This document shows positions 1,196 to 59,600 of a DNA stretch of 64,000 nucleotides, piece by piece. The notes below the pieces were generated by a model. The model searched no databases and was not told where the DNA came from. It worked only from the letters and a program-made list of their open reading frames with translations. Numbering within the stretch: position 1 is the stretch's first letter; every line of letters begins with the position of its first letter. The stretch covers positions 4,211 through 68,210 of IMG/VR virus record IMGVR_UViG_3300025009_001990, one strand, 5' to 3'. The DNA comes from a virus. A program made the position numbers and the translations under genes.

Positions 1196-1618
1196 TCAAT
1201 AAAGATTTGCTTCTGTTTTTGATTTTACAGAATCTTCAGTTACTTCAGGAAAATTATTTGCCTTAAGCCATTTATTTATATATTTTAACGCTATTTTATC
1301 AGCATTTATTTGTTGTTCCTCTGTTAATAGGTTATAACCACCACGAAATTTTGACGGAATTTTTTTATAAATACAAATCGCTGCTTGCCCCATCCAGGCG
1401 ATTCGATTCATCTTTTCGTTCGTTAAATAATGTTCGCAAGAATTTTTCCATTCAGTTATTACTCTTTTTAAATATTTTTCAAATAATGAAATATCAGATA
1501 AAAAATCACGATATTCAATTTCTGCTTCTTCATTTGTCATATTTTTTGGTGGATGGTTTTCATAAAAACCAGCTGGGTAACATTCCCATTTATCCCAAGT
1601 GTGATATATCCGGTCCAT
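1196..1618 (-). CDS. Hypothetical protein between the IbrB-like and IbrA-like genes
   Basis: 140-aa ORF tightly packed against both neighbours; RIYHTWDKWEC and NRIAWMGQAA segments. Confidence 0.75.
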   Translation of the reverse strand: MDRIYHTWDKWECYPAGFYENHPPKNMTNEEAEIEYRDFLSDISLFEKYLKRVITEWKNSCEHYLTNEKMNRIAWMGQAAICIYKKIPSKFRGGYNLLTEEQQINADKIALKYINKWLKANNFPEVTEDSVKSKTEANLY

Positions 1619-2319
1619 TAAATAATATCCTCTTCGTCCAATAAGTTTAAATTATCATCATCAAATATTGCGGCATCCCAAGCCTCAGTAAAATCGGAAT
1701 CAGCAAAAACTTCAGTTAATCCAGAAATTTGACAAAGACGTAAAACCTCATCGGGATCCATTCCGAGTTCCTTACCTATTCTTGTATCGCTCCAATTTCG
1801 TTTTTTTAATTCGATAACAATATCTGACATTGCATTTATTTGATGTTTACCCCTCGCTCTATTATGCCTGATTGTTGAAGCGATACGGTCATTTCGTCCT
1901 TCTTTATCTTTTTTTATTTTAACTATTGGGAGATAGCCATGGACTCGTTTTTTAACTGCAATACTTTCTTTTCCTATTCTGTTCCGATGAAAACCGTCAA
2001 TAACCTCAATGTCATTTTTATTATTCCAGGTAACAATAGGTTGTGTATAACCATCTGATAAAATTGAATGTTCAAGTAATTCCATCTCTGGAGGAGCTAC
2101 CGTATTTGGATTATAATCATTTGCGGCAACATTTTCATTTTTAACCCAAATTACACAATCAACCGGCTCATTTCGAAACGGACTATAATGAGATAATGCT
2201 ATTTTAATTTTATTAATGGCATCAATTTTTTCATTGATTGATAATGATTGTAATTCAGAAAGCTTGTTTCTGATCTCTCTGACCAATTTTATTTTTTTAT
2301 TAAAGATAGTTCGTTTCAT
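1618..2319 (-). CDS. IbrB/YbdM-like ParB/Srx-domain protein
   Basis: ANDYNPN, DGYTQPIV, VIDGFHR and STIRHNRARGKH motifs, followed by a C-terminal HTH (IGKELGMDPDEVLRL). Confidence 0.88.
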   Translation of the reverse strand: MKRTIFNKKIKLVREIRNKLSELQSLSINEKIDAINKIKIALSHYSPFRNEPVDCVIWVKNENVAANDYNPNTVAPPEMELLEHSILSDGYTQPIVTWNNKNDIEVIDGFHRNRIGKESIAVKKRVHGYLPIVKIKKDKEGRNDRIASTIRHNRARGKHQINAMSDIVIELKKRNWSDTRIGKELGMDPDEVLRLCQISGLTEVFADSDFTEAWDAAIFDDDNLNLLDEEDII

Positions 2320-2320
2320 T

Positions 2321-3235
2321 TTAATAAATTTTTGATTTTTCCCGAATATCTCTCGGGTCCATTAAAAGACCTCTGTGGTTGCCTTTTCGTAATATTTTAG
2401 GCAATTCAAATTCAGAATATGGAACTTTATCCATTATTCCATTTTTTGCTTTCATCCAATAATTTTTAAATCGCCTTAATTCGTATTCTGTCCAGCCATT
2501 CGCAGCATTAACAAAACCACCTTTGCTTTCAGAAAGCAAAGGTTGATACCTCATCGGGTATATTTCATTAACTTTTATTTCCCTGAGGTATTCAGCGCGA
2601 TAAAGAGCATCTGCTGGGGTATCGGTAAATCCATATAACATTAATACCGATATTTTTTTAATTCCATTATGGTGCGCTATTGTAACTGCTTTTTTAATAT
2701 ATTCTTCTTTATCGGTTGAATCAAACGCAAACCGAATATCTGTCAATTTTAATTCAGCAATTCTTGATGCTTTTTCTGATGTAAATAATTTTGCTTCTAA
2801 TCCTTGGTTAAATTCAATATATGGGAGTTTTTTTAATTTATCAATTACGTTGTTGAAATGGTTTTTCGAAGACGCAAGAAAGTTATTATCACAAACGATT
2901 GGTCTAGGAACGAAATTTTTAATTTCCCTAAAAACACCTTCTATCTTTGGGACAGCGCAAAAGCTACAATTATTGATACACCCTCTAGTTGTGAATGTTG
3001 CAAGAGGGTTATGGAATGTGATAGGCTCACACCAATCAATAGTTTCCTGGAGAGTAGCTATTCCATCAAATTTATTCCTTAAAAGAATAGCTCCAGGACC
3101 ACCAACAACAACCTGTTTCTTTTGTTGTTTAATAAATCGCAATACCTCAGGAACAAGCCAAGTGAACGGGATTGAAATATAAATTATCCCGTTCACTTGC
3201 CAAGTGGCAAAGGTTTTTCGCCACTGATTGATCAT
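2321..3235 (-). CDS. Radical SAM protein (paralog 1)
   Basis: TTRGCINNCSFC (CxxxCxxC), DNNFLA and FNQGL motifs. Probable start at MINQW (3235), just after the upstream stop. Confidence 0.8.
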   Translation of the reverse strand: MINQWRKTFATWQVNGIIYISIPFTWLVPEVLRFIKQQKKQVVVGGPGAILLRNKFDGIATLQETIDWCEPITFHNPLATFTTRGCINNCSFCAVPKIEGVFREIKNFVPRPIVCDNNFLASSKNHFNNVIDKLKKLPYIEFNQGLEAKLFTSEKASRIAELKLTDIRFAFDSTDKEEYIKKAVTIAHHNGIKKISVLMLYGFTDTPADALYRAEYLREIKVNEIYPMRYQPLLSESKGGFVNAANGWTEYELRRFKNYWMKAKNGIMDKVPYSEFELPKILRKGNHRGLLMDPRDIREKSKIY

Positions 3236-3236
3236 T

Positions 3237-4055
3237 TTATTTCTTCCACGAAAAAGTATTACCGGTTTTGACAACAAGACCAAGGATGAGGAGAGACGGA
3301 ACAACGTATCCAAACATATAATTAGATACGTTTTCGTTTGTTTTTCCGCCATTTTCTACAAATAAAACATCGGCCAGTTTTACCATCTCTTCACGTGTAG
3401 CGGCCCCTTTTTGCAGTGAATCAATAAGAGCATGGCTACGAGTATATGCCAGTTTTATTTTTTTGGAACTTTCTTTTTTCTCGCCAGCTTTCTTCTTTGC
3501 AGGAGCAGTACCATCAGCAATTGCGGTCAGTTTGGTAGTTACGTATTCCCGCAGTTTTTTGATATCCTTCAGGAAAGGGGGTGGGCAGACAATTCCGTTG
3601 TTTTTGGCGACTGCTTTCAGATCATCAAGAGTCTTTGCTTTTTTGAGGCCAAGCAGACACTTGTGAGCGTTGTCTCTTGCCTCGGTGTTGTCTTCTTCCG
3701 GCTCGGGATCAGCTTTCACCGATTTTTTACCGGATTTCTTTTTCTCAGAAACGGGAGGTGCTTCCTCCTCTGCTTCCTCCTCTGCTTCCTCCTCTGCTTC
3801 CTCAGCAGCTACCTGAGCGACGTTTTTCAATCCCATCAGTTTGAGGGTAGCAGCGGTTTCAGCAGAAATCGTATCGTCTGCCGTAAGATCCTCAGCTGCT
3901 TCCGTGATTTCGTCCGTCAATTCCTCAGCAGTAAGTTCAACATCGATTCCTTGACCTTCATCAAACATGAACGAATTGAAATCCTCTGCTACCGCAACGA
4001 GTGCTTCGATAGTCGGTTTTACTGCTTTTTTTGTTGCTGCCGGTTTCTTTGCCAT
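3237..4055 (-). CDS. Hypothetical protein, acidic and Lys/Ala-rich
   Basis: 272-aa ORF with an AAGGAG RBS, an upstream promoter and an internal EEEA repeat. Confidence 0.75.
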   Translation of the reverse strand: MAKKPAATKKAVKPTIEALVAVAEDFNSFMFDEGQGIDVELTAEELTDEITEAAEDLTADDTISAETAATLKLMGLKNVAQVAAEEAEEEAEEEAEEEAPPVSEKKKSGKKSVKADPEPEEDNTEARDNAHKCLLGLKKAKTLDDLKAVAKNNGIVCPPPFLKDIKKLREYVTTKLTAIADGTAPAKKKAGEKKESSKKIKLAYTRSHALIDSLQKGAATREEMVKLADVLFVENGGKTNENVSNYMFGYVVPSLLILGLVVKTGNTFSWKK

Positions 4056-4122
4056 GGTTTTCTCCTTGAAGAAATTAAGGTTGTATGTGAGAAGGATTTT
4101 GATTTCTTCTCTGTATACGACT

Positions 4123-4151
4123 ATTATAAGTACTCTCCATCAAATCGTAAA
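4123..4151 (-). promoter_or_regulatory. Sigma70-like promoter TTTACG-N17-TATAAT
   Basis: Perfect -10 box and 17-nt spacer, intergenic upstream of 4055; same style as the promoter at 13779-13807. Confidence 0.65.
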
Positions 4152-4179
4152 GAAATTTCTTTGGTAATGCAAAAAAAAA

Positions 4180-5724
4180 TTAGTAAGAATATGTTAATGG
4201 TCTTCCCTGGGCCAGACTTTGAAGTATGGTAACATATTGATTTTCGTTACATTCGTCTTCACGAACCGCTAATTTTCCCAACCTCATCACCCCTCGTTTT
4301 TTTTCTTCCGGGAGCTGATTCATGGTAATCATCCCTGTTACATGACTAAATTTTCGCTTGTCTTCACTGAAGTTTTTCATCGTGATCCACTTAGAATAGT
4401 AGCTCGCTGCATCGGACTGAGATGCAGAAATTACTAAACAGTGTCGCTGTTGACTCAATCCTCGTATCCCTGCCCAAATGCTGTTTTGCTGATGTCGGAA
4501 TTGTTCTCCTTTTTCCGGGACAAGTAAATCCATGTAGTCAATAATTAGCACGTCAGGAACAAATCCTATTTCTAATTCCCAAATGCCGAGTTTCTTTTTA
4601 ATTTCTGAAATTGTTAATGATTCATTCGGATATGCTTCAATTAGTAATTTTGCTTTCTTTCCCCATCTTCTTTGATAAATTTCTCCTTGTTTTGTTGCTT
4701 CTGACCATTCTAAAACTTTTACAGGATCTCTAATTTTAAACCATGCTGCTGGTTGATATCTTTCAAATCTCTTTTCGTCTCGAAAACACTCAATACAAGT
4801 GGAGTAATCATTGTCTTCATCCCAAGAAATATATTCCTTTGTTTCTGAATTTCTAATTACCCGCTCTTTTCCTCCCGATGGGCTTTCCTCACAACTTCCT
4901 GTTTGATTTTGATAGCAGTCCAAGCACGGAACTTTTATTTCTTTACAAAACTTTTGTCTGTTTGATCTTCCGGTAAATCTTATTCCATATCGAACAAGCA
5001 TTTGTGCTCTGGTCATATCCCCAGCGGCAAAGAAAGCAACATTTCGTCCCGCTCTTCTTGCCGCTATTGACATCTCAATGAGCATCCATGTTTTCCCTCT
5101 TTTTTCCGGACCAAGAAGAGTAACGAACGAATCAGGGATAAACAAATCGTCAAGAAATTTACCAGCAGCACCAGGAAGGCGAAAGAGCGGAGTCGATGAA
5201 GTTTCAAACGCTTTCGCCATTTCTTCTGAATTGCTTAGCGGATCGACGATTTTTTCAGAACGTATAGAAAGACTCTTATAATTTAAAATCGTTCGCTGTG
5301 CGTCAACCAGAGCGTTTTTTGAAAGAGAATTAGAAACGCTCTTAGCTACAAATTCAAGATTTTTCGTTTCAAGATACTTTTCAGTCTGATCCAGAAGGTA
5401 TTCAACGTTAAATTGTTCGGCTCTTTCATAATCTTCCGAAAGCGAACTGAGTAAATCTTCAATGAGCGAAAGTTCGTCTTCTTCGATATTTCCCTCTTTT
5501 TCTTCTTTTTTGAAAATGTCCTCAATATGAATTCCAGGGGCTTTTTTAAATTGCTGATAATATCTGGAAACCCATTTAGCTACTGTGCAAATATACGGGG
5601 TAGTAATTAAATCGATTCTGAAAATATGCTGTACGGCTTTGAAATATTCATCGCTTACAATCAATCCTTGGATTATTTGACGTTCAGGATTCTCTTTTAC
5701 TTTTCTTCTTCGATATCCAGCCAT
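4180..5724 (-). CDS. DnaB-like replicative helicase
   Basis: Walker A GPEKRGKT, Walker B IIDYMD, ISASQS and SEDKRK motifs. Confidence 0.8.
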   Translation of the reverse strand: MAGYRRRKVKENPERQIIQGLIVSDEYFKAVQHIFRIDLITTPYICTVAKWVSRYYQQFKKAPGIHIEDIFKKEEKEGNIEEDELSLIEDLLSSLSEDYERAEQFNVEYLLDQTEKYLETKNLEFVAKSVSNSLSKNALVDAQRTILNYKSLSIRSEKIVDPLSNSEEMAKAFETSSTPLFRLPGAAGKFLDDLFIPDSFVTLLGPEKRGKTWMLIEMSIAARRAGRNVAFFAAGDMTRAQMLVRYGIRFTGRSNRQKFCKEIKVPCLDCYQNQTGSCEESPSGGKERVIRNSETKEYISWDEDNDYSTCIECFRDEKRFERYQPAAWFKIRDPVKVLEWSEATKQGEIYQRRWGKKAKLLIEAYPNESLTISEIKKKLGIWELEIGFVPDVLIIDYMDLLVPEKGEQFRHQQNSIWAGIRGLSQQRHCLVISASQSDAASYYSKWITMKNFSEDKRKFSHVTGMITMNQLPEEKKRGVMRLGKLAVREDECNENQYVTILQSLAQGRPLTYSY

Positions 5725-5736
5725 ATCATTCCTTTA

Positions 5737-5970
5737 TCAAAAATCAATAAACGGCAAATCTTGCATTAGTATTCTAGCCTGATTAAAATGGCCTTCGAGT
5801 TTTTGAACATTATCCGGGAATTTTAATCTTAAAATAATACGTCTTCCTGTACTAATACTCATTCTTTCGGCTTGTTGTATATTTTCCCATGCTCGAACCG
5901 GGGCAATTATCATTCCTGTTTTTTTATATTTTAATAATTTTTTAAAACTACAAACATGATAAACAATCAT
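5737..5970 (-). CDS. Hypothetical protein
   Basis: 77-aa ORF in a tightly packed operon. Confidence 0.6.
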   Translation of the reverse strand: MIVYHVCSFKKLLKYKKTGMIIAPVRAWENIQQAERMSISTGRRIILRLKFPDNVQKLEGHFNQARILMQDLPFIDF

Positions 5971-5971
5971 A

Positions 5972-6178
5972 TTATTCCTTTATCAATTCTCCGTCAGATT
6001 CGATAATGTCTTTTGGAAAAACAGCAATTTCACCTGTTAGGAACTGAATTTCACCTGTTAGGAACTGAATTTCAAAACATATAAATTGAAGAAAGTAAGT
6101 TTCTTTCAAAACTCGAAACGGAATACAAATATCTGTTTTGTGCCTGTAAAACTGACCCGGCTTTATTTGTTGTTCCAT
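5972..6178 (-). CDS. Hypothetical protein with a 21-bp tandem duplication
   Basis: EIQFLTG is repeated; ORF fits the operon packing. Confidence 0.55.
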   Translation of the reverse strand: MEQQIKPGQFYRHKTDICIPFRVLKETYFLQFICFEIQFLTGEIQFLTGEIAVFPKDIIESDGELIKE

Positions 6179-6870
6179 TTGGTCCTGACTCTCTTTCGTT
6201 TGTCATTTCCTTTTATTTCAATTTCCCTACACATCCCGGCTATTCTGCTTGTTAACCTATCGTCATCCATTTTTTTACTTAGTTCTTGAATGGACAAATT
6301 GGAAGTAATAAAAGTTGGTTTACTGTTTTCATATCGATGGTTGATAATTAGATAAATAACCTGTAAAGAAAAGTCAGAAGTTTTTTCAATCCCCAAATCG
6401 TCCAAGCATAACCATTTTGATTTGGTGCATTCGTTAAATATTTCTTGTTCTCTATTTGATCTCGACTGATAAGATTGCCGAATTTCAAAAAGCATTTGTG
6501 GAACATTAAACCAAGCCCCATCATATTTAAGTTCATATCGGAGATTCAAATACAACCAAATAGCTGCTTGTTGACTTTTCCCTACCCCGGTTTTACCAAA
6601 AAGATAAAATCCCTGATTCTGTTCCCCGTTTTTAACTATCTTACTTTCGATAAATGAACAGGTTGATAATGGAGTTATATTTTTAACAAGATTTATTGGA
6701 ACAGAATCAGGGAGACATTTTTCAGGACTTTTTGTCAAAACATGTTTTTCAATTACGCAAGATGGACAATCTTTTCTTTTAGCTGCTGTCGCAACATCGT
6801 CTGAATCTTCCTCATCATAAAATTTCATTTCAAATTCTTTTTTGCAGGTTTCACAGATATTTTTTATCAT
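6163..6870 (-). CDS. DnaC/IstB-like AAA+ helicase loader
   Basis: N-terminal CxxC..CxxC; GKTGVGKS, LCLDDLG, ITSN and RLTSRI motifs. Confidence 0.88.
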   Translation of the reverse strand: MIKNICETCKKEFEMKFYDEEDSDDVATAAKRKDCPSCVIEKHVLTKSPEKCLPDSVPINLVKNITPLSTCSFIESKIVKNGEQNQGFYLFGKTGVGKSQQAAIWLYLNLRYELKYDGAWFNVPQMLFEIRQSYQSRSNREQEIFNECTKSKWLCLDDLGIEKTSDFSLQVIYLIINHRYENSKPTFITSNLSIQELSKKMDDDRLTSRIAGMCREIEIKGNDKRKRVRTKWNNK

Positions 6871-6876
6871 TTTTGT

Positions 6877-7749
6877 TTAATCCTTCATAATGACTGTTTC
6901 GTAATTGTCATCATATTTTCCTTCTTGATAAGCAGCTCCACCTTTTATACTTTTTGGTTTTTTCTTGTTTGAATATTTTCCTTCAAGAATTTTCAGATAG
7001 TTTTGGTCATTAGCAACTATGAAATCAAAATTGATTTTCCAGCCACGATCATTATCTCCGAGCAGAAATTCGGAATCAGCAATTTTATCAAATATCTTTT
7101 TCCAACCTGATAACTTAGAAAGTTCGGGAGATTCTTCAATTCTTATTTTTATTTTATTTGTTCGGGATGGTGTTAATTTAATGACAGAAGGTAAATCTAA
7201 TTTATCGGCTGTATCATTCCAAAGATCAATAATTTTTTTCGAAAAGGTACTAAAATCTTTTTTATTCTCCTTAGATTTATTCTCCTTAGATTTATTCTCC
7301 TTAGATTTATTCTCCTTATTATTCGTACTGTTTTCGATAGGTCTATTCGTACTGTTTTCGATATCTCTAGGGGTTCGATTTTCGATACCCCTAGTCGTAA
7401 CGTATTTTTCTATTAGATTTTCTATATTTAGATAATAAAATTCTTTAGCTGGGATGCCCTTCATATGGGTTTTTAAGATTCCAATTTCTATTAATTTCCT
7501 TTTATTATTCCTTAACTGTAAACGAGACATTCCGATTTGTTCTGTTTGATCTTCGAAAGTAAGAAAAAATGAACCATCTTTTTCCAACATATTCCTGTTT
7601 AGAAAGTATTTATATTTATCAATAAGGTTACATAAAAAAACAGTTAAATCTAATCCGAATATTTTGATGAGAGATTTATTTAAAATAATAAACCCATCTG
7701 AACTAAATGCTTCCAGTGCTAATAGTTGGGAATTTCGATCTATATTCAT
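6877..7749 (-). CDS. Phage replication initiator (replisome organiser)
   Basis: N-terminal wHTH-like region, central repeats, C-terminal FLLGDNDRGWKINFDF..KILEGKY; immediately upstream of the DnaC-like gene. Confidence 0.8.
   Translation of the reverse strand: MNIDRNSQLLALEAFSSDGFIILNKSLIKIFGLDLTVFLCNLIDKYKYFLNRNMLEKDGSFFLTFEDQTEQIGMSRLQLRNNKRKLIEIGILKTHMKGIPAKEFYYLNIENLIEKYVTTRGIENRTPRDIENSTNRPIENSTNNKENKSKENKSKENKSKENKKDFSTFSKKIIDLWNDTADKLDLPSVIKLTPSRTNKIKIRIEESPELSKLSGWKKIFDKIADSEFLLGDNDRGWKINFDFIVANDQNYLKILEGKYSNKKKPKSIKGGAAYQEGKYDDNYETVIMKD
7261..7396. repeat. Iteron-like repeats inside the initiator gene (probable replication origin)
   Basis: About 4 copies of 15-bp TTTATTCTCCTTAGA plus 3 TTTTCGATA-cored units at 24-bp spacing, as in the lambda O-gene origin layout. 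Confidence 0.7.
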
Positions 7750-7945
7750 TTCTGATCTCCTTTTGCGTGAAAGAAGCTATGAAAAAGGAAGAAGAGGAAG
7801 GTACGGCAAACGTCAATTTCTGTCAGGACCATTCAGAATGTTGACTACCTTCCCCCGGCAGAAGCCAAACAGGGGATCAGTCTGTTTTCTTTGAAGGAGG
7901 GGAAAAAGTCCAGTAATCTTACTATAAGCTATTTTCTAATTTCGA

Positions 7946-8863
7946 TTAAAAAATATTTTTTAAAAGTTCTCTCATTAAATTATCAGCATCATTCTGATTC
8001 ATTTCCCCTGGATCTTCATCTTTCAAATCAATGATTATCACTTCTCTATTCCCATTAGAGAGACAATTTGCTAATTTCTCAGCTTGTTCTACTGCTGTAG
8101 GTTCAGGATCAAATAAAATAAATATCTGCTTGAAAGGTAATAACAATTTGACTTGAGACAATGTAAACTTAATTCCGAATGTAGCAACTGATCCTGGCCC
8201 CAATCTCCAAACGTCAGTTACTCCTTCACAAACAACAACAGAATCACTTTTAACAAGGCCTAATCCATAGAGACATGCTTTATGATCTCTTGATTCAAAA
8301 TCAGCAGGACAGGCCTTATATTTCATTTTGCTCTTGTCTGTTATATCCCTTCCTTGATAACTAACGAGTTTGTTCTGATAATAAATCGGTATTATAATTC
8401 TGTGGTTAAAATTCCCGATTGGCCCTGTTCCTTTTATTTTCCAAATTTCTTTTAACTTCTCATGATCAAAATTTCTATTTTCTAAATATCGAATATGTTG
8501 CTTCTTCAGTTCGGTTGTTCCTGACGGCAATTTACATTCTTTTCTTGATTTCCTTTCTTTTTTTTGATAAGGAATATATGAGCCGTCAACTTGATATTTT
8601 TTTAATATCGGATAGATACTATCTTCATCAAGTTTTAAAACGATAGATAGAACATGAACAACGTTTTTCCCTCCTCCGCATCTCCAGCAGGAATATCTGC
8701 CAGCAAATTTAGAGGAGTCGTCAATGCAATATCCGAGATGAAATCCGGAATGTCCCGAACAGAAAGGGCATGGAATTCCTATCCAACCGAGAGAAACGTG
8801 TTTGTGTCCTCCGATTTGGTAGGAAATTCCAAAATCCTCATAGAGCTTGATTATGTTGATCAT
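7946..8863 (-). CDS. DNA primase (Zn finger plus TOPRIM)
   Basis: CPFC..CWRC zinc finger; RIIIPI, YQGR, VCEGVTD, FDPE and DPG motifs. Confidence 0.85.
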   Translation of the reverse strand: MINIIKLYEDFGISYQIGGHKHVSLGWIGIPCPFCSGHSGFHLGYCIDDSSKFAGRYSCWRCGGGKNVVHVLSIVLKLDEDSIYPILKKYQVDGSYIPYQKKERKSRKECKLPSGTTELKKQHIRYLENRNFDHEKLKEIWKIKGTGPIGNFNHRIIIPIYYQNKLVSYQGRDITDKSKMKYKACPADFESRDHKACLYGLGLVKSDSVVVCEGVTDVWRLGPGSVATFGIKFTLSQVKLLLPFKQIFILFDPEPTAVEQAEKLANCLSNGNREVIIIDLKDEDPGEMNQNDADNLMRELLKNIF

Positions 8864-9126
8864 GTCTTTTCAACAACACATTTGCAGTTCTTGAAATTCA
8901 TTAACGAGCAGAAGTCAACAGTACAGGCCTTTTCATCATAGCGGTGAATTGTTCTATGAGGGCAACTTCCCCCGTACCAACACGTTTTGGCCATAGAGCA
9001 GATGTGTTGTTTTCGAATCCTATCTTTCGAAATTGCTCTAGGCTGATCGGTTTTAGTTATGTTAGTAGGTAGAGATGGGTATACGGTTCTTTTACGTTTT
9101 TTTAAAGGAGGTTTTGTCCTTTTCAT
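8860..9126 (-). CDS. Hypothetical Cys-rich protein
   Basis: 88 aa, ATGA-coupled to primase, starts MKRTKPPLK. Confidence 0.6.
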   Translation of the reverse strand: MKRTKPPLKKRKRTVYPSLPTNITKTDQPRAISKDRIRKQHICSMAKTCWYGGSCPHRTIHRYDEKACTVDFCSLMNFKNCKCVVEKT

Positions 9127-9127
9127 T

Positions 9128-10852: not shown

Positions 10853-11137
10853 ACGGGGAAATAGAAAGAATTTGACCGTGATATTTTGGAAGGAGCTTTT
10901 TCAAAGAAAGTATTTGTTTTTCTGTCAACCTTCCTCTTTTTCGATATTGATCAACGAGAGATGAACAAAAACAGAATCGGTTGAATTAAAACCCATCCCG
11001 TTTTGATATTTAGTAGAAAATTCTTGTTGTTCATCTGGTGTTTGAAAAGAATGAAGGATCAGCATTGCTCCAATAGCATATTCGTCTTTTTGAATAGCTG
11101 ATTTGAAGGTGTCTGATGTGGGAGTTTGAATGTTCAT
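10770..11137 (-). pseudogene. Small phage gene apparently interrupted by a 1-nt frameshift
   Basis: The 70-aa ORF reads ..GFNSTDSVF; shifting -1 at the T5 run (10967-10971) continues CSSLVDQYRKRGRLTEKQI..PKYHGQ to TGA at 10770, which overlaps the SNF2 ATG at 10777. Confidence 0.5.
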
Positions 11138-11210
11138 TTGAATTTCCTTTTGTCTGTATATAAACAGGTCAGGAGGTATTTATTTATTATAGTCTGTTTG
11201 ATAATAAAAG

Positions 11211-11744
11211 TTAAGAATTTTTTAACATCTCCTCTATTTCATGAACTGCCTTCCAATATCGCGGCCATTTCCACAATAATGTTTCTCGGCAGTGTTCTTT
11301 TAAATCTCTTCTAATATCTCTTTTGTTGCAAGTTGTCGGAATCGGCCATTTTGTTCTTTTTGATTCTATTCCAACATTTTGAAAAATACATCTGATTATC
11401 GTCTTAGCATCTTTAGAGAGATGTTGAATATTGTCTTTGAATTCAACAAGTTTACAAGGATCTTCTACCCCATCAATTCCAAGTGCTTCTTCTATTTCGA
11501 TAAAACAATTTGGATGCGGGTGAATTTTATGATTATTTCTGTTCATCTTTTGTAAAAGTAAATTGTGGTATAGCCAGGTGCAAAACTTTCCCTTTTTTGG
11601 ATCATGAGTTTTGCAGGCTTTTACAAAAGGTTCATGTCCATCACCATTCAAAAAAGCCTGTCTTCCAAGGATTTTACATATTAATCCCTGGAAGTTTTCG
11701 TATTTAGGCGGTTCACATTTTAAGGGAAATTTTGTTCTTTTCAT
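11211..11744 (-). CDS. Hypothetical protein, possibly a degenerate sigma-70-like regulator
   Basis: FVKACKTHDPKKGKFCTWLY resembles sigma region 2.3-2.4; LSKDAKTII resembles the start of region 4. Confidence 0.45.
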   Translation of the reverse strand: MKRTKFPLKCEPPKYENFQGLICKILGRQAFLNGDGHEPFVKACKTHDPKKGKFCTWLYHNLLLQKMNRNNHKIHPHPNCFIEIEEALGIDGVEDPCKLVEFKDNIQHLSKDAKTIIRCIFQNVGIESKRTKWPIPTTCNKRDIRRDLKEHCRETLLWKWPRYWKAVHEIEEMLKNS

Positions 11745-11923
11745 CTTTTTACTCGTTCGAAAAGCCTTTTTAGGGACAGGCGGGTGGAATCGGTTTTAGA
11801 ATCATAGGAAATATTATCGATAGACCAACTAGCGTGTTTAGATAAATAGAAATCTCCGATTGAAAAAAACCAAACAAAATCTCCTTCAATTATGAAAATC
11901 TGTTTGTATTGTGTTCTTTTCAT
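11741..11923 (-). CDS. Hypothetical protein
   Basis: Strong AAGGAGG RBS; ATGA overlap with the next gene. Confidence 0.6.
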   Translation of the reverse strand: MKRTQYKQIFIIEGDFVWFFSIGDFYLSKHASWSIDNISYDSKTDSTRLSLKRLFERVKR

Positions 11924-11944
11924 AATATTCCTCCTTATATTTGT

Positions 11945-12001
11945 TTAACCACTCAACTTCCGGCTGGGATATTTCTACCCCAGCCTTGGTTCAGGGGTTA
12001 A
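11945..12001 (-). ncRNA. Structured intergenic RNA motif, copy 1
   Basis: UUAACC-CCUGAACCAA-GGCUGGG/CCCAGCC-GGAAGUUGAGU-GGUUAA; a second copy at about 13040-13093 shows covariation. Confidence 0.55.
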
Positions 12002-12795
12002 GAAATCATTTGGATAACAAGGTTAATGATTTTTACACATTTTTCGTAATCTTTACAGAGGTTTTTATATACTTTTGATTCAAGAATTTCAGGCCACTCT
12101 TGAATTGTATGTAATTTGCAACCTACTTGGATATAATTACAATATGCTGTTATATTCCATTCGCAGGCGTTTATCATACATATTGGTGAAATTTTTATTT
12201 CAGCATCTCCGGACACCTGAGCATTTCCGTGCACCTGAGCATCTCCGTACACCCAAGCATCTCCGGACACCTGAGCATTTCCGGACACCCGAGCATTTCC
12301 GTACACCCAAGCATCTCCGTACACCTGAGCATTTCCGTACACCTGAGCATCTCCGTACACCTGAGCATCTCCGGACACCCAAGCATTTCCGGACACCTGA
12401 GTATTTCCGTGCACCCAAGCATCTCCGTACACCTGAGCATCTCCGTACACCTGAGCATTTCCGTGCACCTGAGCATTTCCGTACACCTGAGCATCTCCGT
12501 ACACCTGAGCATCTCCGTACACCTGAGCATTTCCGTGCACCTGAGCATCTCCGTACACCCAAGCATCTCCGGACACCTGAGCATTTCCGGACACCTGAGC
12601 ATTTCCGTGCACCCAAGCATCTCCGTACACCTGAGCATTTCCGTGCACCCAAGCATTTTCAATTTGAGAAAGATTTGATTCTTTTTCGATCAAACCACCA
12701 AGATCTCCAATTTTTATATCAAATTTAGAGATATTAATGAGGGATTTAATTCTAAACATTCCATTTTCTTGCGGAATCATTTCGTATTTTTTCAT
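11998..12795 (-). CDS. Hexapeptide-repeat (left-handed beta-helix-like) phage protein
   Basis: About 25 repeats of (N/D)A(Q/W)V(Y/H/S)G; N-terminal GDLGGLIEKESNL and C-terminal IQVGCKLHT. Confidence 0.85.
   Translation of the reverse strand: MKKYEMIPQENGMFRIKSLINISKFDIKIGDLGGLIEKESNLSQIENAWVHGNAQVYGDAWVHGNAQVSGNAQVSGDAWVYGDAQVHGNAQVYGDAQVYGDAQVYGNAQVHGNAQVYGDAQVYGDAWVHGNTQVSGNAWVSGDAQVYGDAQVYGNAQVYGDAWVYGNARVSGNAQVSGDAWVYGDAQVHGNAQVSGDAEIKISPICMINACEWNITAYCNYIQVGCKLHTIQEWPEILESKVYKNLCKDYEKCVKIINLVIQMIS
12202..12657. repeat. Coding 18-bp tandem repeat
   Basis: Variants of GCATCTCCGTACACCTGA in tandem, with no spacers. Confidence 0.9.
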
Positions 12796-12806
12796 GATGT
12801 TCTCCT

Positions 12807-13010
12807 TTAGTTTTGGTTGGTCAGCAATTGCCGATATGCCTCGTTTTCCGTTATGTGCTGGAAGTCAGAAAGAATCTCGACCGCTTCAGAAATCATACCT
12901 GAATTATACAATCGTTGACAGTGCTTGATGGTTCCTTTCAGTAAGTCCTGATTGAAAGCAACTCGATGTCTGTTTACCCGTGCTCTTTGTTCTGATGTGA
13001 GTTCCAACAT
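12807..13010 (-). CDS. Hypothetical early protein
   Basis: GGAGG RBS; 67 aa. Confidence 0.65.
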   Translation of the reverse strand: MLELTSEQRARVNRHRVAFNQDLLKGTIKHCQRLYNSGMISEAVEILSDFQHITENEAYRQLLTNQN

Positions 13011-13039
13011 GATTGACCTCCAATTGGTTTAGATTCTGT

Positions 13040-13093
13040 TTAACCACTTAACTACTAGCCGGAGGGAAACTTCCAGCTTTGGTTCAGGGATTA
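13040..13093 (-). ncRNA. Structured intergenic RNA motif, copy 2
   Basis: UUAAUC-CCUGAACCAA-AGCUGGA/UCCGGCU-AGUAGUUAAGU-GGUUAA. Confidence 0.55.
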
Positions 13094-13138
13094 AGCATTT
13101 TTGTTTTTAAACATTCGTTCAGTTGAAAAAAGATAGGT

Positions 13139-13354
13139 TTATTGACTCCATCCGTTTGGATTCCAGTTTTCAACCGTAACTCCATTTCTCCTAAACTGAA
13201 CAACAAGAGATGTTCCTTGCCAATAATACCCGATATATTCCGCCTTTAATTTAGTGGCGATTGCTTTTGCTTTTCGTTCAGCGGATTTGCTTATTGGTCT
13301 CATATCATCCTCCTGCCCGGATTCCGCCGGGCTAGGTTGTTTGTATTTATTCAA
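13139..13354 (-). CDS. Hypothetical early protein
   Basis: Overlaps the upstream stop; alternative start at MRPIS with a GGAGG RBS. Confidence 0.6.
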   Translation of the reverse strand: MNKYKQPSPAESGQEDDMRPISKSAERKAKAIATKLKAEYIGYYWQGTSLVVQFRRNGVTVENWNPNGWSQ

Positions 13355-13607
13355 TAATCTTGACTCTCTGAAGAGTTTTTTGAGTAGTTACTATTGCATG
13401 AATATCAATTTCTTTATTGTGCCAGTTTGAGAAACTGTATTTCCACGCGGCAGCTTCATTAAACCATTTGTAAATAACGTCATTTATTTTAAAATAGACA
13501 CAACCAGCCTCAAATGGACAATTACTAGATCTCATTTCCGAACCAGTACCGTTTATAACCGCTTTACCAGAAAATCTTATCTTTCCATCACTTAATTTAT
13601 CATTCAT
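13347..13607 (-). CDS. Hypothetical protein, first gene of the leftward operon
   Basis: AAGGGG RBS directly 3' of the hammerhead. Confidence 0.65.
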   Translation of the reverse strand: MNDKLSDGKIRFSGKAVINGTGSEMRSSNCPFEAGCVYFKINDVIYKWFNEAAAWKYSFSNWHNKEIDIHAIVTTQKTLQRVKIIE

Positions 13608-13623
13608 GGTGAATCCCCTTATT

Positions 13624-13677
13624 TAGTGTTTCGCCCTGAATGGGCTCGTCAGTTTGATTTACAAATCAAAGACACTA
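13624..13677 (-). ncRNA. Type III hammerhead ribozyme
   Basis: UAGUGUC^UUUGAUU-UGUA-AAUCAAA-CUGACGA-GCCC-AUUCA-GGGC-GAAACACUA: complete CUGANGA/GAAA core, GUC cleavage triplet, stems I-III fully paired. Confidence 0.9.
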
Positions 13678-13778
13678 TTTTCGTCATCTGGTAGAGCGCT
13701 CTGCAACTACCAGACCATCTCCACCCTTCGGGTTCTCCTTTAAGTTCCCCCTTTCCTCTCTTCTCCTCTATATACTTA

Positions 13779-13807
13779 ACTATAAGCTTTCTGTTGATGG
13801 AAGTAAA
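13779..13807 (-). promoter_or_regulatory. Sigma70-like early promoter TTTACT-N17-TATAGT
   Basis: 17-nt spacing; lies at the head of the leftward operon in the divergent intergenic region. Confidence 0.6.
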
Positions 13808-13858
13808 GAAAAATCTTAACGTTTTTAACGAATTTAATATAAATAAATTCTTTAAAGC

Positions 13859-13882
13859 AATCAACAACTTAACTGCTTGATA
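13859..13882. promoter_or_regulatory. Two inverted IHF-consensus sites
   Basis: AATCAACAACTTA (+, 13859-13871) and TATCAAGCAGTTA (-, 13870-13882) both match WATCAANNNNTTR. Confidence 0.5.
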
Positions 13883-13994
13883 TAAAAAATAATTTTCCCT
13901 ACAACTTCAATCACTTAAAAACTAGGGGCTTTTCTTTTCAGAAATTTCTCTTTATAATAAGTAGTATACATAAACCTATACCCAATAACCAACT

Positions 13995-14594
13995 ATGAAA
14001 CGGACCAAACCACCAATCAAACAACCCAAGAAAAAAGCGAAGAGGCAAAGACGTCAAAGAAACCTCTTGGGGATAGAACATAGCTACTTTGGTACAGAAC
14101 TCTGGAGAGTATGTGATTGGAATGATGCAGGAAGGCCAAAAGTGTTTAATTCCCCTAACGAGATGATGGTCGCTTGCAACAAGTACTTCCAGTGGGTCGC
14201 AGAAAACAGCTTGATGGAAGAAAAAACGGTTGGACAGTATATGGGAAAAGTACTTACCCATAAGAGTTCGAAGATGAGAGCAATGACCATACGAGGTATG
14301 TGTGTGTTTATTGGGATTACTACAATGACATGGGGAGAATACAGAAAAAAACCTGAATTTTCTTATATTGTACAAAAAGTGGAAACAATCATATACGAAC
14401 AGAAGTTCACGGGTGCTGCTGCTGGATTGTTGAGAACAGATATCATCGCAAAGGAACTGGGGTTGATAGATCGACAGGACATTACCTCTGGAGATAGACC
14501 AATTCAAGGAACATCAGTTGAAGTGACGATGAATATGAATGTGAAGGAAGCCGAAAGAGCATATAAGCAGATGTTGAAGGATGAAATAAATTGA
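13995..14594 (+). CDS. Terminase small subunit (P22 gp3-like)
   Basis: GRPKVF, RAMTIRGMC and YEQKFTGAAAGLL..IIAKELGL segments; directly upstream of TerL. Confidence 0.85.
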   Translation: MKRTKPPIKQPKKKAKRQRRQRNLLGIEHSYFGTELWRVCDWNDAGRPKVFNSPNEMMVACNKYFQWVAENSLMEEKTVGQYMGKVLTHKSSKMRAMTIRGMCVFIGITTMTWGEYRKKPEFSYIVQKVETIIYEQKFTGAAAGLLRTDIIAKELGLIDRQDITSGDRPIQGTSVEVTMNMNVKEAERAYKQMLKDEIN

Positions 14595-16252
14595 CAAGTA
14601 TTGCCCCTAATATGTGGCCACCTAATTACGTGGCTGAATTTGTTTCCCGGTACAATAGGATAAAACAAATGAGGGATAATCCTGTTTTGATTGTTGGGGC
14701 AAAAGAATATTATTCACATCCTGAGAATTGGGTCGAGTTCATTCAACATTGGATGATTACATACGATCCTCGAAACAGCAAAACAAAAGATCTCCCCTCC
14801 ACTATCCCTTTTATTTTCTTTCCAAGACAAAAACAATTTTTTAATTTTCTGCTTTCGTGTTGGCAAGATGGTGAAAATGGATTAGTTGAAAAATGTAGAG
14901 ATATGGGAGCAACTTGGGAATGTTGCTCTTTTGCTGTTTGTATGTGGCTATTCTCTGAAGGATCGTCGGCAGGATTTGGAAGCAGAAAAGAACAGCTTGT
15001 TGATAAGATTGGTGACCCCGATTCGATATTTCAAAAGATTCGAATGCTTATTGATAATATTCCAACTTTTTTTCTTCCTGAAGGGTTTAATCAAAAGATC
15101 CATTCCTCTTATATGAAGTTGATAAATCCTGAGAATGGAGCAACGATAACAGGAGAAGCAGGAGATAATATTGGAAGGGGTGGAAGAAAGTCAATTTATT
15201 TTAAGGATGAATCTGCCCATTACGAAAGGCCAGAATTGATTGAAGCCGCTCTTGGAGATAATACTGATTGTCAGATCGATATATCCTCCGTAAACGGAAC
15301 CGCTAATGTATTTGCCCGTAAAAGACAAAGCGGAGTTGTTTGGGATGGAATAAATCAAATAGAAAGGGGACAAACAAGGGTATTCATATTTGATTGGAGA
15401 GATCATCCGGCTAAAACTCAAGAATGGCATGATCGAAGAAGGGACAAAGCCGAACGGGAAGGACTCCTTCATATATTCGCTCAAGAAGTTGAGCGGGATT
15501 ATTCAGCGGCTGTAGAGGGTATTCTCATTCCCGCACAATGGGTACAGTCCGCTGTTGATCTCGACAAGCGATTTCCTAAATTTGCTGCTTTGATGAAACA
15601 TGGTCAGATATTTTCTGCTTTGGATGTCGCTGACGAAGGTGGGGATCTTAATTCACAGGCAGATAGAAAAGGGATTACATTGATTGGGCTTGATAAGTGG
15701 GCTCAGGGGGATACGGGTGAGACTGCGAATAAAGCGGTAATGAGATGCAGGATGATTCGAGCGGCAGAATTGTTTTATGATTGTATTGGGGTTGGAAGTG
15801 GAATAAAGGCTGAAACAAATAGATTGAAACGCGAAAATATATTGCCAGCCAATTTGAAAGTTATTCCATGGAATGCTGCCGATTCAGTAAATAATCCTAA
15901 TGGACATTCAATTCAAGGAGATAACGAAAGTCCGCTGAATAAAGATTTGTATAAGAATTTAAAAGCGCAAGGTTGGTGGAATTTAAGGACTCGTTTTGAA
16001 AAGACATGGAGATTTGTAACGAAAGGCACTCAATACCCTATGTCTGAATTGATAAATATACCATCAGATATAAATCATTTTAACGAATTGATATCAGAAT
16101 TAAGTCAACCGACATATTCTCATAATTCTGAAGGGAAAATAATTGTAGATAAAAAACCAGACGGAACAAGAAGTCCTAATTTGGCTGATTCTGTGAATAT
16201 GGTATATTGGCCTGTTGAATCGACAAAACAAGCAGGAGTATGGGGACGATGA
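14591..16252 (+). CDS. Terminase large subunit
   Basis: FPRQ Q-motif, KCRDMGATW, GRGGR, YFKDE (Walker B), LDVADEGGD nuclease motif and SPNLADS. Confidence 0.92.
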   Translation: MTSIAPNMWPPNYVAEFVSRYNRIKQMRDNPVLIVGAKEYYSHPENWVEFIQHWMITYDPRNSKTKDLPSTIPFIFFPRQKQFFNFLLSCWQDGENGLVEKCRDMGATWECCSFAVCMWLFSEGSSAGFGSRKEQLVDKIGDPDSIFQKIRMLIDNIPTFFLPEGFNQKIHSSYMKLINPENGATITGEAGDNIGRGGRKSIYFKDESAHYERPELIEAALGDNTDCQIDISSVNGTANVFARKRQSGVVWDGINQIERGQTRVFIFDWRDHPAKTQEWHDRRRDKAEREGLLHIFAQEVERDYSAAVEGILIPAQWVQSAVDLDKRFPKFAALMKHGQIFSALDVADEGGDLNSQADRKGITLIGLDKWAQGDTGETANKAVMRCRMIRAAELFYDCIGVGSGIKAETNRLKRENILPANLKVIPWNAADSVNNPNGHSIQGDNESPLNKDLYKNLKAQGWWNLRTRFEKTWRFVTKGTQYPMSELINIPSDINHFNELISELSQPTYSHNSEGKIIVDKKPDGTRSPNLADSVNMVYWPVESTKQAGVWGR

Positions 16253-17661
16253 AAAGAACTAAGGGGATACAACTTACTTCTGCCGAAAAAGATGAACAGT
16301 TGAGGCGGAATTTATTATACAGGGTATTGGCTACGAGTATATTGGGATCAAGGACATCATACGGCGGAACTCAAACATTTGGCGGATTGAGGGATGTTTC
16401 ATCAGCTCTCGGATATCCTCTGTTGGATGGAATTAAATATGCTGACTATTACTATCGATTCAGACGGCAGGATGTTGCGAATGTAATAATCACAAAACCT
16501 GTAGAATCGAGCTGGGAACGATTTCCAGTGCTACATGCATGGGAAGATAAGGAAGACACTTTTCGTTACGCCTGGGACGATTTCGAAAAGAAGAATCGAA
16601 TCTATTCTATTTTACAGCGTGCTGATGTAATATCCGGAATAGGGAGATACGGAGTTTTGTTGATGGGATTAAATGACGGAGCGGATTCTTTTGCTGTCCC
16701 TGTTACATCAGCATCAGAACTTTTGTATCTTCAACCTTTCTCTGAAGATAACGCAACAATAAAGAGTTTTGTAATAGATAAAAACAACCCTCGTTTTGGT
16801 CAACCTGAATTTTATTCTCTGAAATTGAACGACAATCCAGGATTGACAGGAGTTAGCACTTTTGAAATTATTGTTCATCATTCCAGAATTATTCATATAG
16901 CGGACAATCTTGTTGAGTCGAATATATACGGAATGCCAAGATTGGAAAAAGCATTTAACCGGCTTTTAAATCTTGAATTGATTGTTGGTGGTTCTGCCGA
17001 GATGTTTTGGCAAGGGGCGTTTCCCGGTTTAGCATTTCAAGCAAAAGACGGATTCACGATATCTGAAACTCAATTAACAGATTTACAGGAAGAAATAAAA
17101 AACTATGTACATCAGATGGAAAGGTACATGCGTCTTCAGGGGATGGATGTAAAGAGTCTTGCCCCTATTGTTGCTGATCCTTCCAAACATGTTGATGTAC
17201 AAATGAAGATGATCTCAATTGCAACTGGAATACCGAAGAGAATATTGGAGGGAAGTGAAAGGGGAGAATTAAGTTCTGATCAAGATTCACAGAATTGGGC
17301 AAAGAAATGTGACAACAGAAGAAAAACATACATTGAACCGTTTATCCTTCGAATGTTGATCGATAGATTGAACGAATTGGGGATATTTAAAACTCCTGAT
17401 GACGGATATACAATTGAGTGGCCTGACCTTCAAGATCCAAGCGAGAAAGACAGAGCGGAAGTCGGCAGAATAAGATCAGAGGCAATCAGCAAATACACTT
17501 CTTCCCCTGACGCGCAATTGATCATTTCTTTTGAATCGTTCCTTGAAGAGATAATGGAATTGAGTCCTGAAAAAGTCGAAAGGATTATGGAAGAGTCGAA
17601 AAACATTGTTCCCACTGAGCCTGATGGGGGAGGTGATGATGAAATTGAGACATTAAAATAA
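16249..17661 (+). CDS. Portal protein (DUF1073-like)
   Basis: Follows TerL with ATGA overlap; HHSRIIH and IATGIPKRILEGSERGELSS motifs. Confidence 0.85.
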   Translation: MKRTKGIQLTSAEKDEQLRRNLLYRVLATSILGSRTSYGGTQTFGGLRDVSSALGYPLLDGIKYADYYYRFRRQDVANVIITKPVESSWERFPVLHAWEDKEDTFRYAWDDFEKKNRIYSILQRADVISGIGRYGVLLMGLNDGADSFAVPVTSASELLYLQPFSEDNATIKSFVIDKNNPRFGQPEFYSLKLNDNPGLTGVSTFEIIVHHSRIIHIADNLVESNIYGMPRLEKAFNRLLNLELIVGGSAEMFWQGAFPGLAFQAKDGFTISETQLTDLQEEIKNYVHQMERYMRLQGMDVKSLAPIVADPSKHVDVQMKMISIATGIPKRILEGSERGELSSDQDSQNWAKKCDNRRKTYIEPFILRMLIDRLNELGIFKTPDDGYTIEWPDLQDPSEKDRAEVGRIRSEAISKYTSSPDAQLIISFESFLEEIMELSPEKVERIMEESKNIVPTEPDGGGDDEIETLK

Positions 17662-59118: not shown

Positions 59119-59600
59119 TTTTTTAACTTGTTTAATAAATTCCAATATCGATACATCATTTTTATTCCAATTTCTCTATGTAATTTTACATCTTGTTTCT
59201 TTTTATGTATTATATTGGCCTTTCTAACTTCATAAACAAATTTTCTTTTTCCATTATCATTATAAATATAAACCCCGCAATATTCAGGAATTAAATCAAT
59301 ATCTACAAGACCTTTGGGAATAAGAAACGAAAAATAGTTACAAATTAACAAATTACTTCCTTCTTTTAACGCTTTATGTTTATTTGTATTACCGTTCCAT
59401 CTATTTCCAATTTTTTTGTTGAAATCTGCTTTGAAGTCAGATTTTGTTAATTTTATTTCAATCTCATCAATATAACCACTTGATCTGATTGCTATTATAT
59501 CCATTTCATTATATTTTACAAAAATATTTGGGGCAATGATTTTGTATCTTTTGTAAAAAGATTGATAAAAGGCAAGCTGAATATCACATACTTTTATCAT
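59115..59600 (-). CDS. PD-(D/E)XK MmcB-like nuclease
   Basis: EMDII..EIEIKLTKSDFKAD..NYF..IPEYCG. Confidence 0.65.
   Translation of the reverse strand: MIKVCDIQLAFYQSFYKRYKIIAPNIFVKYNEMDIIAIRSSGYIDEIEIKLTKSDFKADFNKKIGNRWNGNTNKHKALKEGSNLLICNYFSFLIPKGLVDIDLIPEYCGVYIYNDNGKRKFVYEVRKANIIHKKKQDVKLHREIGIKMMYRYWNLLNKLKK

Follow-up and report, generated by a model that had tools for sequence, protein, structure and literature searches.

MKRT starts at a phage packaging locus

The window analyzed in this work is a stretch of 64,000 nucleotides that comprises bases 4211-68210 of a 68,210-bp IMG/VR virus record (IMGVR_UViG_3300025009_001990; 36% G+C) rated complete, and its source is a tailed phage. The subject is a short peptide, MKRT, with which six otherwise unrelated proteins of this phage start and which, in the form M-x-R-T-K, is a tail of the portal and of the small terminase (TerS) in this and other phage lineages. 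Genes were called by a simple open reading frame rule, not by a trained gene finder, which yielded 103 genes, 23 of them starting with MK; the assignment of proteins to the TerS position in related phages is likewise rule-based. The replication and recombination genes run leftward and encode a DnaE-type polymerase, a beta-clamp homolog, IbrA, IbrB, a DnaB-like helicase, a DnaC-like loader, a primase, an SNF2 helicase, a RecA/UvsX-like recombinase and SbcCD-like proteins. The packaging and structural block runs rightward and opens with the genes for TerS (13995), the large terminase TerL (14591) and the portal (16249).

The MKRT starts that a preliminary description had reported are all present, at 2319(-), 9126(-), 11744(-), 11923(-), 13995(+) and 16249(+). 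Each ATG is the first one after an upstream stop codon, with the exception of the portal gene, where an alternative ATG is found 9 nt upstream (16240, MGTMKRTKG); in a relative with 92% identity, MKRTKG is kept and the three codons ahead of it read differently (MGQ). TerS (13995..14594, (+)) starts with MKRTKPPIK (13995-14021). It passes the GP3_package family (PF16677) with 77.6 bits against a cut-off of 29.4 over residues 46-162, and its phrog_606 match begins at residue 44, which makes the first 45 residues an appended basic extension. The portal (16249..17661, (+)), which carries the tail MKRTKGIQ (16249-16272), passes Phage_portal_3 (PF06381) with 109.2 bits against a cut-off of 33.8, and its start codon overlaps, as ATGA, the stop codon of TerL (14591..16252, (+); phrog_2 at 7e-18), which is encoded between TerS and the portal. 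In AlphaFold 2 models built from alignments, residues 1-34 of TerS are coil (predicted local distance difference test, pLDDT, of 58/48/38 by block), and residues 1-10 of the portal are coil without secondary structure followed by a helix (residues 11-39), with a mean pLDDT of 79.8 for the model and values below 50 for residues 1-5. A Foldseek search with the portal model recovers solved portals (168 hits at E up to 0.001; best 9yin, E 5e-22). In these models, the tails are predicted to be appended to the folds of TerS and the portal.

The four additional proteins with MKRT starts are encoded leftward. An IbrB/ParB-like protein (1618..2319, (-); phrog_2159 at 1.6e-68), whose homologs in isolated phages are annotated as IbrB or ParB-like, starts with MKRTIF. 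An 88-residue Cys-rich protein encoded between the SNF2 helicase and the primase (8860..9126, (-)) starts with MKRTKPPLKKRKRT (9085-9126), reads MKRTILPLKKRQRT in a close relative (L036) and has no match in Pfam, PHROG or NCBIfam. A 177-residue protein (11211..11744, (-)) starts with MKRTKFPLK (11718-11744) and contains an internal SKRTKWP (11343-11363, (-)); it is a lead for a sigma-70-like protein only, given that the cluster ranked third by features in the Atlas (score 0.95) has Sigma70_r2 on 56% of its members, that ranks 1 and 2, with the equal score of 0.95, carry no family, and that the structure matches point to sigma factors at template modeling (TM) scores below 0.5. Finally, a 60-residue protein of no known family (11741..11923, (-)), which is preceded by a strong Shine-Dalgarno site, starts with MKRTQYKQIF.

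Selection on the peptide and its anchorage at the N-terminus

The six MKRT starts among the approximately 103 genes compare with an expectation of 0.06-0.075. When residues at positions 2-4 were shuffled by column among the N-termini, only one of 20,000 shuffles reached five shared tripeptides, and this is a conservative comparison because the R and T of the motif itself were retained and the portal was counted as MGTM. Unrelated phage loci contain a single MKRT start in 1,741 genes (0/601 and 1/1,140; Fisher p = 1.8e-7 against 6/103), which likewise puts the starts beyond chance. The enrichment is tied to the terminus. KRT occurs six times outside the first six residues compared with approximately 4.2 occurrences expected from whole proteins, and RTK lies within 10 residues of a terminus in 8 of 14 cases (p = 1e-5), or in 4 of 10 when the four MKRTK starts are set aside (p = 0.01, a post hoc comparison). 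In addition, all six genes reside in one 15-kb block that holds 23 of the 103 genes (p = 1e-4) and adjoins the packaging genes, Thr is the residue after M-[KR]-R in 6 of the 8 instances in this phage, and three of the carriers share the longer form MKRTK-x-P-[LI]-K, each encoded by different codons.

The codons of the motif vary as had been described: across the six starts, Arg is encoded by CGA/AGG/AGA/AGA/CGG/AGA and Thr by ACT/ACA/ACA/ACA/ACC/ACT. These choices match the genome-wide usage (AGA 45%, AGG 17%, CGA 15% and CGG 9% for Arg; ACA 45%, ACT 30% and ACC 15% for Thr). Among orthologs, Arg is encoded by AGA, CGA, CGT, CGC or CGG and Thr by ACT, ACG, ACA or ACC, with the Arg and Thr codons differing freely among portal orthologs, such that the variation within the motif is synonymous both within the genome and between orthologs. 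Because the codons vary as they do in the rest of the genome, it is the peptide that is under selection, rather than a repeat in the DNA, as the preliminary description had proposed. Thus, the MKRT feature is genuine, with selection on the peptide itself and an N-terminal anchorage.

Several other origins were considered and rejected. A DNA repeat or gene conversion does not fit the three MKRTK-x-P-[LI]-K copies, among which nearly every synonymous site differs. An A-rich start context as the sole cause is incompatible with the use of CGG ACC in the TerS gene and with the lack of internal KRT enrichment. Translational coupling is not a distinctive trait of these genes, being observed for 4 of the 6 compared with 34 of the 103 overall. 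There is also no sign of a widespread portable tag in the viral_contigs collection, in which a scan with the back-translated start MKRTKPP-[L/I/V/M/F]-K recovered 0 stretches; this collection excludes the record of the window itself and perhaps near copies as well.

The tail is a feature of the portal family

Portals were surveyed by a portal-alignment scan of metagenome contigs and by a HMMER search of 1.84 billion cluster representatives. Portals that are 45-58% identical to that of the window start with MKRTKP, MNRTKP, MIRTKP, MKRTTP or MKRTTQP, further ones with MRRNSP, MRRNKP or MRRTVS, and two portals at 30-36% identity start with MARTKQ and MSKRTKF. Of the 17 portals nearest to the query (42-92% identity), 12 have Arg at residue 3. 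Among 150 portal representatives that are 37-52% identical to the query, with gene calls from outside this analysis, 11 contain RTK in the first nine residues; the mean after shuffling of residues 2-12 is 1.5, none of 2,000 shuffles reached 11, and RTK is present in 0.10% of interior windows. A net charge of at least +2 in the first 10 residues is found in 74 of the 150. These surveys show M-x-R-T-K, often followed by Pro, to be an old, ancestral N-terminal tail of this portal family, predicted to be disordered.

The same tail on proteins encoded upstream of the large terminase

In several lineages (at least four), the protein encoded directly upstream of TerL carries the tail as well. These proteins start with MKRTKPP in this phage, MKRTKYP in L101, MKRTKQP in L103, MTRTKKP followed by RRTKRP in L114, MVRTKTK in L119-121 (when the ATG is taken as the start) and MKRTKFN in L201. 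Those of this phage, L101, L103 and L114 belong to GP3_package, whereas the L119 and L201 proteins have no detectable homology to this family (hhalign probability 0.5% and 0.1%) and share a sequence block with each other. The TerL proteins encoded next to the tail carriers are of at least two types, some of them Terminase_6N/6C.

The tails of the two proteins tend to occur together. Among 31 de-duplicated rows in which both proteins were readable, both have the tail in 5, only TerS in 1, only the portal in 1 and neither in 24 (p = 2e-4); collapsing near-identical lineages by eye changes this to roughly 4/1/1/18 (p = 0.002), and both p-values overstate independence because the lineages are related. 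L201, which is outside this set, is a further case with both tails. The mixed cases are L103, a middle-distance relative in which TerS starts with MKRTK and the portal with MRRNSP, and L118, in which the portal starts with MNRTKP and the TerS-position protein is tail-less. In the wider TerS family, the extension is rare: 32 of 33 relatives lack an MKRT start, most of them beginning directly at the conserved domain and a few having other extensions, and among the 11 proteins recovered by a word-based search with TerS, the extension is present only in the query and in one 86% identical relative. We found no description of a tail common to the small terminase and the portal in titles and the openings of abstracts, a coverage that leaves out subscription journals. 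As a separate observation, the TerS genes of this phage (leader 13900-13994), L101, L103, L114 and L119 have no Shine-Dalgarno site and short C/A-rich leaders.

Conservation of the motif in the other carriers

In near-identical relatives (L002/L101 and L036; 75-94% protein identity), K-R-T is retained in all five comparable genes; by a hand count, none of 15 K-R-T residues changed compared with 13 of 50 residues that follow them (p = 0.02). The 60-residue protein of L036, for example, keeps MKRTQYKQIF. At greater distances, TerS retains the tail: at 52% identity (L037/L103), MKRTK is kept and the rest of the 40-residue extension is rewritten, and at 35-36% identity (L114) the start is MTRTK. 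The additional carriers do not follow this pattern. None of 45 IbrB orthologs (53-66% identity) starts with MKRT, although they often start with MK[NKT]x and four of them with MKNT, one substitution away. The sigma-like ortholog with 57% identity lacks the N-terminal copy and contains the internal KRTKWP unchanged, as do all three sigma-like orthologs, the only useful loci available for this comparison. This internal KRTKWP lies in the C-terminal part of the protein, which looks like region 4, and is resembled by the N-terminal MKRTKFP. In a complete 65-kb relative (G001), there is no MKRT start and a single M-[KR]-R start, that of its portal, among 108 genes; the structural genes of this phage are mostly 70-94% identical to those of the window, except for a few genes (for example, those for the long tail proteins) at 34-60%, and its replication block and TerS family are different.

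Related forms of the motif at other termini, which the preliminary description had grouped with the MKRT starts, are all present in the sequence. The SbcD/Mre11-like phosphoesterase (55722..56693, (-)) starts with MKRS at 56693(-), and its orthologs with MKRS (L086), MKRK (L084) and MRRS (L085), such that M-[KR]-R is kept and position 4 varies. To these forms can be added the Holliday-junction-resolvase-like protein (59597..60127, (-)), which starts with MRRQK and shares the M-[KR]-R pattern; orthologs of this protein start with MKRQ, MKRA or MKRT. RQRTKF comprises residues 5-10 (61972..61989, (-)) of the RecA/UvsX-like protein (60844-62001) and is kept in L086, with another basic Thr/Ser-rich sequence in L084 and L085. 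RVRTKW near the C-terminus (6175..6192, (-)) of the DnaC-like loader (6163-6870) is kept in L036 (91.5% identity). LKRTK is the C-terminus (63405..63419, (-)) of a 164-residue protein (63402-63896) and is kept in L086, with L084 ending in KLKRNK and L085 in RLSRRSRE. Family searches agree with the earlier annotations of TerS, the portal and the IbrB/ParB-like, DnaC-like, RecA/UvsX-like and SbcD/Mre11-like proteins; the label "UvsY-like" given to the 63402-63896 protein was not confirmed, this protein matching only PHROGs without known function.

The preliminary description had viewed all these termini as one genome-wide tag that links replication, recombination and packaging proteins. By comparison with orthologs, TerS and the portal are the only proteins in which the tail is conserved beyond near-identical relatives; in the other four MKRT carriers, it is kept only in near-identical ones. 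Hence a tag of equal standing across the genome is not borne out, and neither is the inclusion of the termini of the RecA-like, DnaC-like and 63402-63896 proteins, which drift to other basic sequences at 59-83% identity.

Comparison with known terminal peptides

In phage phi29, residues 3-5 (R-K-R) of the connector gp10 protrude and bind the packaging RNA (pRNA), any single mutation of them abolishing the binding, and the N-terminal segment is flexible, missing from crystal structures and needed for packaging, according to the relevant passages of the phi29 report (PMC12084888). The portal of the window is similar in having K2, R3 and K5 on a low-confidence predicted coil of 10 residues. It differs in that the core is R-T-K and not R-K-R, and phi29 uses a pRNA, of which no equivalent is known here (none was sought). 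There is no phi29 entry among the Foldseek matches listed for the portal model, and the passages on phi29 describe no tail shared with TerS (PMC12084888). The phage P23-45/G20c portal, chains of which are among the fold matches of the portal analyzed here, has its first 25 residues disordered on the outer side of the ring, with five of the first nine positively charged, and the sections of that work concerned with the tail report neither an order-specific motif nor a TerS counterpart (PMC6397560).

The capsid-targeting sequence (CTS) of phage T4 internal proteins is, in the part of the source that deals with it, a short conserved N-terminal peptide found on diverse proteins within one phage (PMC3012670). 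It loads them into the scaffolding core; CTS carriers are head-internal proteins, from which the prohead protease cleaves off the peptide. The likeness consists in one N-terminal peptide shared by six otherwise unrelated proteins of one phage. In contrast to the CTS, the conserved carriers here are TerS and the portal, and TerS is not known as a component of the virion. A sigma-like protein and IbrB are further carriers.

Among cellular proteins, the tail of histone H3 starts with A-R-T-K, and the ribosomal protein bL34 is a small basic protein that binds rRNA. The bL34 of Bacillus pumilus, as given in the pertinent part of the source, starts with MKRTFQP (PMC4196992), which compares with MKRTKQP of the L103 TerS and MKRTTQP of the L127 portal. 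The Ribosomal_L34 model (PF00468) has 0 matches in the phage genome, and the resemblance, without homology, is that of a short arm only.

Short terminal motifs that link many DNA-metabolism proteins to one hub are also exemplified by the beta-clamp-binding motif and the acidic tip of SSB. The bacterial clamp-binding consensus is a Gln/hydrophobic penta- or hexapeptide, unlike the basic K-R-T-K of the MKRT tail, and an end of this kind, Q-Y-F-D-F, sits instead on the DnaE of the phage. The beta-clamp was accordingly rejected as a hub: with DnaE ending in a canonical-looking Q-x-F-x-F, RTK is an unlikely clamp ligand. In Cluster K mycobacteriophages, start-associated conserved DNA/RNA sequences are found upstream of many start codons; here, by contrast, the nucleotides vary and the peptide is conserved, and the 18-30 nt upstream of the starts are unlike one another.

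A putative nucleic-acid-contacting arm and alternative explanations

Our tentative interpretation, the likeliest of those considered, is that the tail is a flexible, terminus-anchored arm that contacts nucleic acid. The tail would be a short, disordered, basic arm with an order-specific core Arg-Thr-Lys (M-x-R-T-K, often then Pro), an old feature of the portal family that recurs on the small-terminase-position proteins working with such portals and that, in this phage lineage, is also found on four further proteins encoded in the neighboring module for replication and regulation. The arms might radiate from the TerS and portal rings and touch nucleic acid that winds around these rings or is threaded through them; on the other carriers, the arm could add a non-specific DNA contact. 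We infer that the ligand is DNA rather than a protein. All carriers from recognized families handle DNA (TerS, portal, ParB-like, SbcD-like, RecA-like, DnaC-like and resolvase-like proteins), as does the sigma-70-like lead, and the most basic N-termini of the genome belong to these same DNA-handling proteins; of the additional MKRT carriers, the ParB-like protein is a DNA binder by family and the sigma-like protein as a lead only. The presence of the tail on two non-homologous TerS families combined with different TerL types argues against a reader tied to one TerL family, DNA being common to all of these systems. The addition of the tails to the folds, their predicted disorder and the frequency of RTK and of basic charge at portal N-termini also fit an arm of this kind. 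Precedents are provided by the basic N-termini of the phi29 connector, the P23-45/G20c portal and bL34, and the C-terminal location of the TerL contact in P22 TerS (see below) is in line with it.

A number of observations weigh against a nucleic-acid ligand. The enrichment requires the residue order R-T-K and not just any arrangement of the same residues, and plain electrostatic binding to DNA predicts neither this order dependence nor the preference for Thr after M-[KR]-R. The co-occurrence of the TerS and portal tails would be explained equally well or better by one specific protein that is the partner of both. The 88- and 60-residue carriers are proteins without known function. Finally, in the portion of the P23-45 study that discusses the portal tail, its authors proposed contacts with the capsid and not with DNA (PMC6397560).

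These points lead to an explanation that we consider possible but less likely, namely that the tail docks onto a single protein site within the packaging machine, such as the portal ring, the vertex capsid or a conserved surface of TerL. TerS would then copy the tail of the portal for the same site, by mimicry or in a hand-over, and the extra carriers would be clients brought to this site. The order-specific motif at a fixed position, with Arg at residue 3 in most of the closest portals, the co-occurrence of the tails in the 31 de-duplicated rows and again in L201, and the location of all six MKRT genes in one block beside the packaging genes fit this possibility. So does the presence of the tail on two non-homologous TerS families, which looks like convergence on one ligand, with the portal family remaining constant while the TerS and TerL types change. 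The differing TerL types make a TerL-specific site unlikely, however, the relatedness of the lineages inflates the co-occurrence statistic, and the mixed cases L103 and L118 break the pairing. No contact of TerS with the portal is known. In the section of the P22 work that addresses this protein, the TerL-binding part of P22 TerS, a member of the same Pfam family, is formed by the C-terminal residues 140-162 and not by the N-terminus (PMC9611059). The docking motif for a phage hub or compartment suggested in the preliminary description comes close to this explanation once it is confined to packaging; the annotated genes were found to include no candidate reader of such a tag, be it a hub, compartment, protease, protein kinase or modifying enzyme.

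It is rather unlikely that the tail has no single function, the portal and TerS tails being inherited basic arms and the other four MKRT starts lineage-specific accidents favored by frequent Lys at position 2, A-rich codons and a preference of DNA-binding proteins for basic termini. The frequent MK[NKT]x starts of IbrB orthologs, including the four MKNT starts, are in line with accidental origin, as are the confinement of the motif in the four extra carriers to relatives of 75-94% identity, its absence from the more distant sigma-like ortholog, the variation of position 4 among orthologs (T, S, N, K, A, Q) and the lack of MKRT starts in G001. Against this stand the number of such accidents required, with four extra MKRT starts among 101 genes compared with approximately 0.07 expected (Poisson p of about 1e-6), the MKRTK-x-P-[LI]-K form common to three carriers with different codons and the constancy of K-R-T next to changing flanks in close relatives; A-richness also fails as a cause, considering the CGG ACC codons of TerS and the absence of internal enrichment.

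We regard as doubtful an extension of the docking idea in which the tail acts as an address label for the packaging vertex: one receptor site on the portal/capsid vertex or the motor would serve both the portal and the TerS tail, and the label would have been copied onto the sigma-like factor, IbrB and the two small proteins, bringing them to the packaging site and perhaps allowing them to leave with the DNA into the next cell.

A site of a terminus-specific process, be it a degradation signal or a modification of Thr or Arg (for example, phosphorylation) that times or tunes the carriers, is improbable. The motif is terminus-anchored, order-specific and Thr-enriched and lies in predicted disordered segments, all of which fit such a site, but the annotated phage genes were found to include no candidate reader (protein kinase, protease adaptor or transferase), the only kinase being an adenylyl-sulfate kinase and the protease-like hits being limited to head-maturation proteins. 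Moreover, position 2 of the motif is variable (K, T, V, N, I, A), which would give the carriers different mature N-terminal residues.

AAA at codon 2 is a known enhancer of translation. Nevertheless, a signal in the RNA, with codons 2-5 acting as an enhancer of initiation or early elongation or the start codon being covered by the operator of a translational repressor, is very unlikely, for which the lack of Shine-Dalgarno sites and the C/A-rich leaders of the TerS genes in all lineages and the coupling of four of the six MKRT genes would speak, given that the variation in the motif is all synonymous, the upstream 18-30 nt are dissimilar, the gene classes with the highest expression (major capsid, tail tube, decoration) lack the motif and the same peptide is also found at C-termini and internally.

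Other features of the phage genome

Relatives of this phage among isolates are remote. A megablast search of 50,697 phage records gave no match, the best match of the portal among isolated phages has 33% identity, and no close relative of TerS was found in 185,579 species genomes. No tRNA genes were found in the phage. The DnaE-type polymerase (PHP, DNA_pol3_alpha and finger domains) is encoded left of the window, within bases 174-3910 of G000, and the frames L094:174-2879(-) and L094:2876-3910(-), also left of the window, correspond to the polymerase and the beta-clamp homolog, the latter with matches to PDB DnaN chains (E 6e-7) and phrog_947 (4e-26). The polymerase ends with K-Q-Y-F-D-F, and that of L084 with KQFFIF; from its sequence, this end looks like a C-terminal clamp-binding peptide. 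A 374-residue protein without a family match (62250-63374, (-)) ends with G-E-D-I-P-F, which we take to resemble the acidic C-terminal tip of bacterial SSB; this tip is kept in the close relative L086, and the aligned frames of L084 and L085 have basic ends.

The phage also encodes a bona fide adenylyl-sulfate kinase (204.9 bits; cut-off 163), two radical-SAM-like (S-adenosylmethionine) proteins, a divergent thymidylate-synthase-like protein, the pair of IbrA (3'-phosphoadenosine-5'-phosphosulfate (PAPS)-reductase/DndC-like) and IbrB and, directly left of the window, a MazG-like pyrophosphatase. This unusual gene set (in the window, 58585-59145, 2321-3352, 56677-57543, 50226-51014, 1-1194 and 1618-2319, all (-)) suggests a pathway of DNA or nucleotide modification, possibly involving sulfur. 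Two glycosyltransferase-like genes (26548-27210, (+), and 30427-32013, (+)), which match a sialyltransferase-like PHROG and a glycosyltransferase PHROG, are located inside the head/tail block, and several related phages have, between the TerL and portal genes, a gene whose product, judged from its first residues, starts like a cytidylyltransferase; together, these genes hint at glycosylated virions. L119 and L120 are parts of one 104,851-bp metagenome contig in which the same portal region occurs twice, approximately 66 kb apart, and which is probably a concatemer of a genome of approximately 66 kb.

Implications for phage DNA packaging

The motif is a terminal peptide under selection that is conserved as a tail of the portal and TerS, and a hub tag spanning the genome is not established. 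Basic tails at the N-terminus of the portal have been described in a few model phages, and their role, in contact with pRNA, capsid or DNA, is debated. What is new here is one order-specific tail common to the portal and the small terminase across lineages, even when the terminase proteins are non-homologous. The way in which TerS hands over DNA and TerL to the portal is poorly understood, and the shared tail suggests that the two rings of the packaging machine have one ligand in common. If this ligand is a protein site, the tail would represent a docking code that is new to phage assembly; with DNA as the ligand, it would be a compact and portable arm for DNA contact, which one phage has passed on to further proteins that handle DNA.

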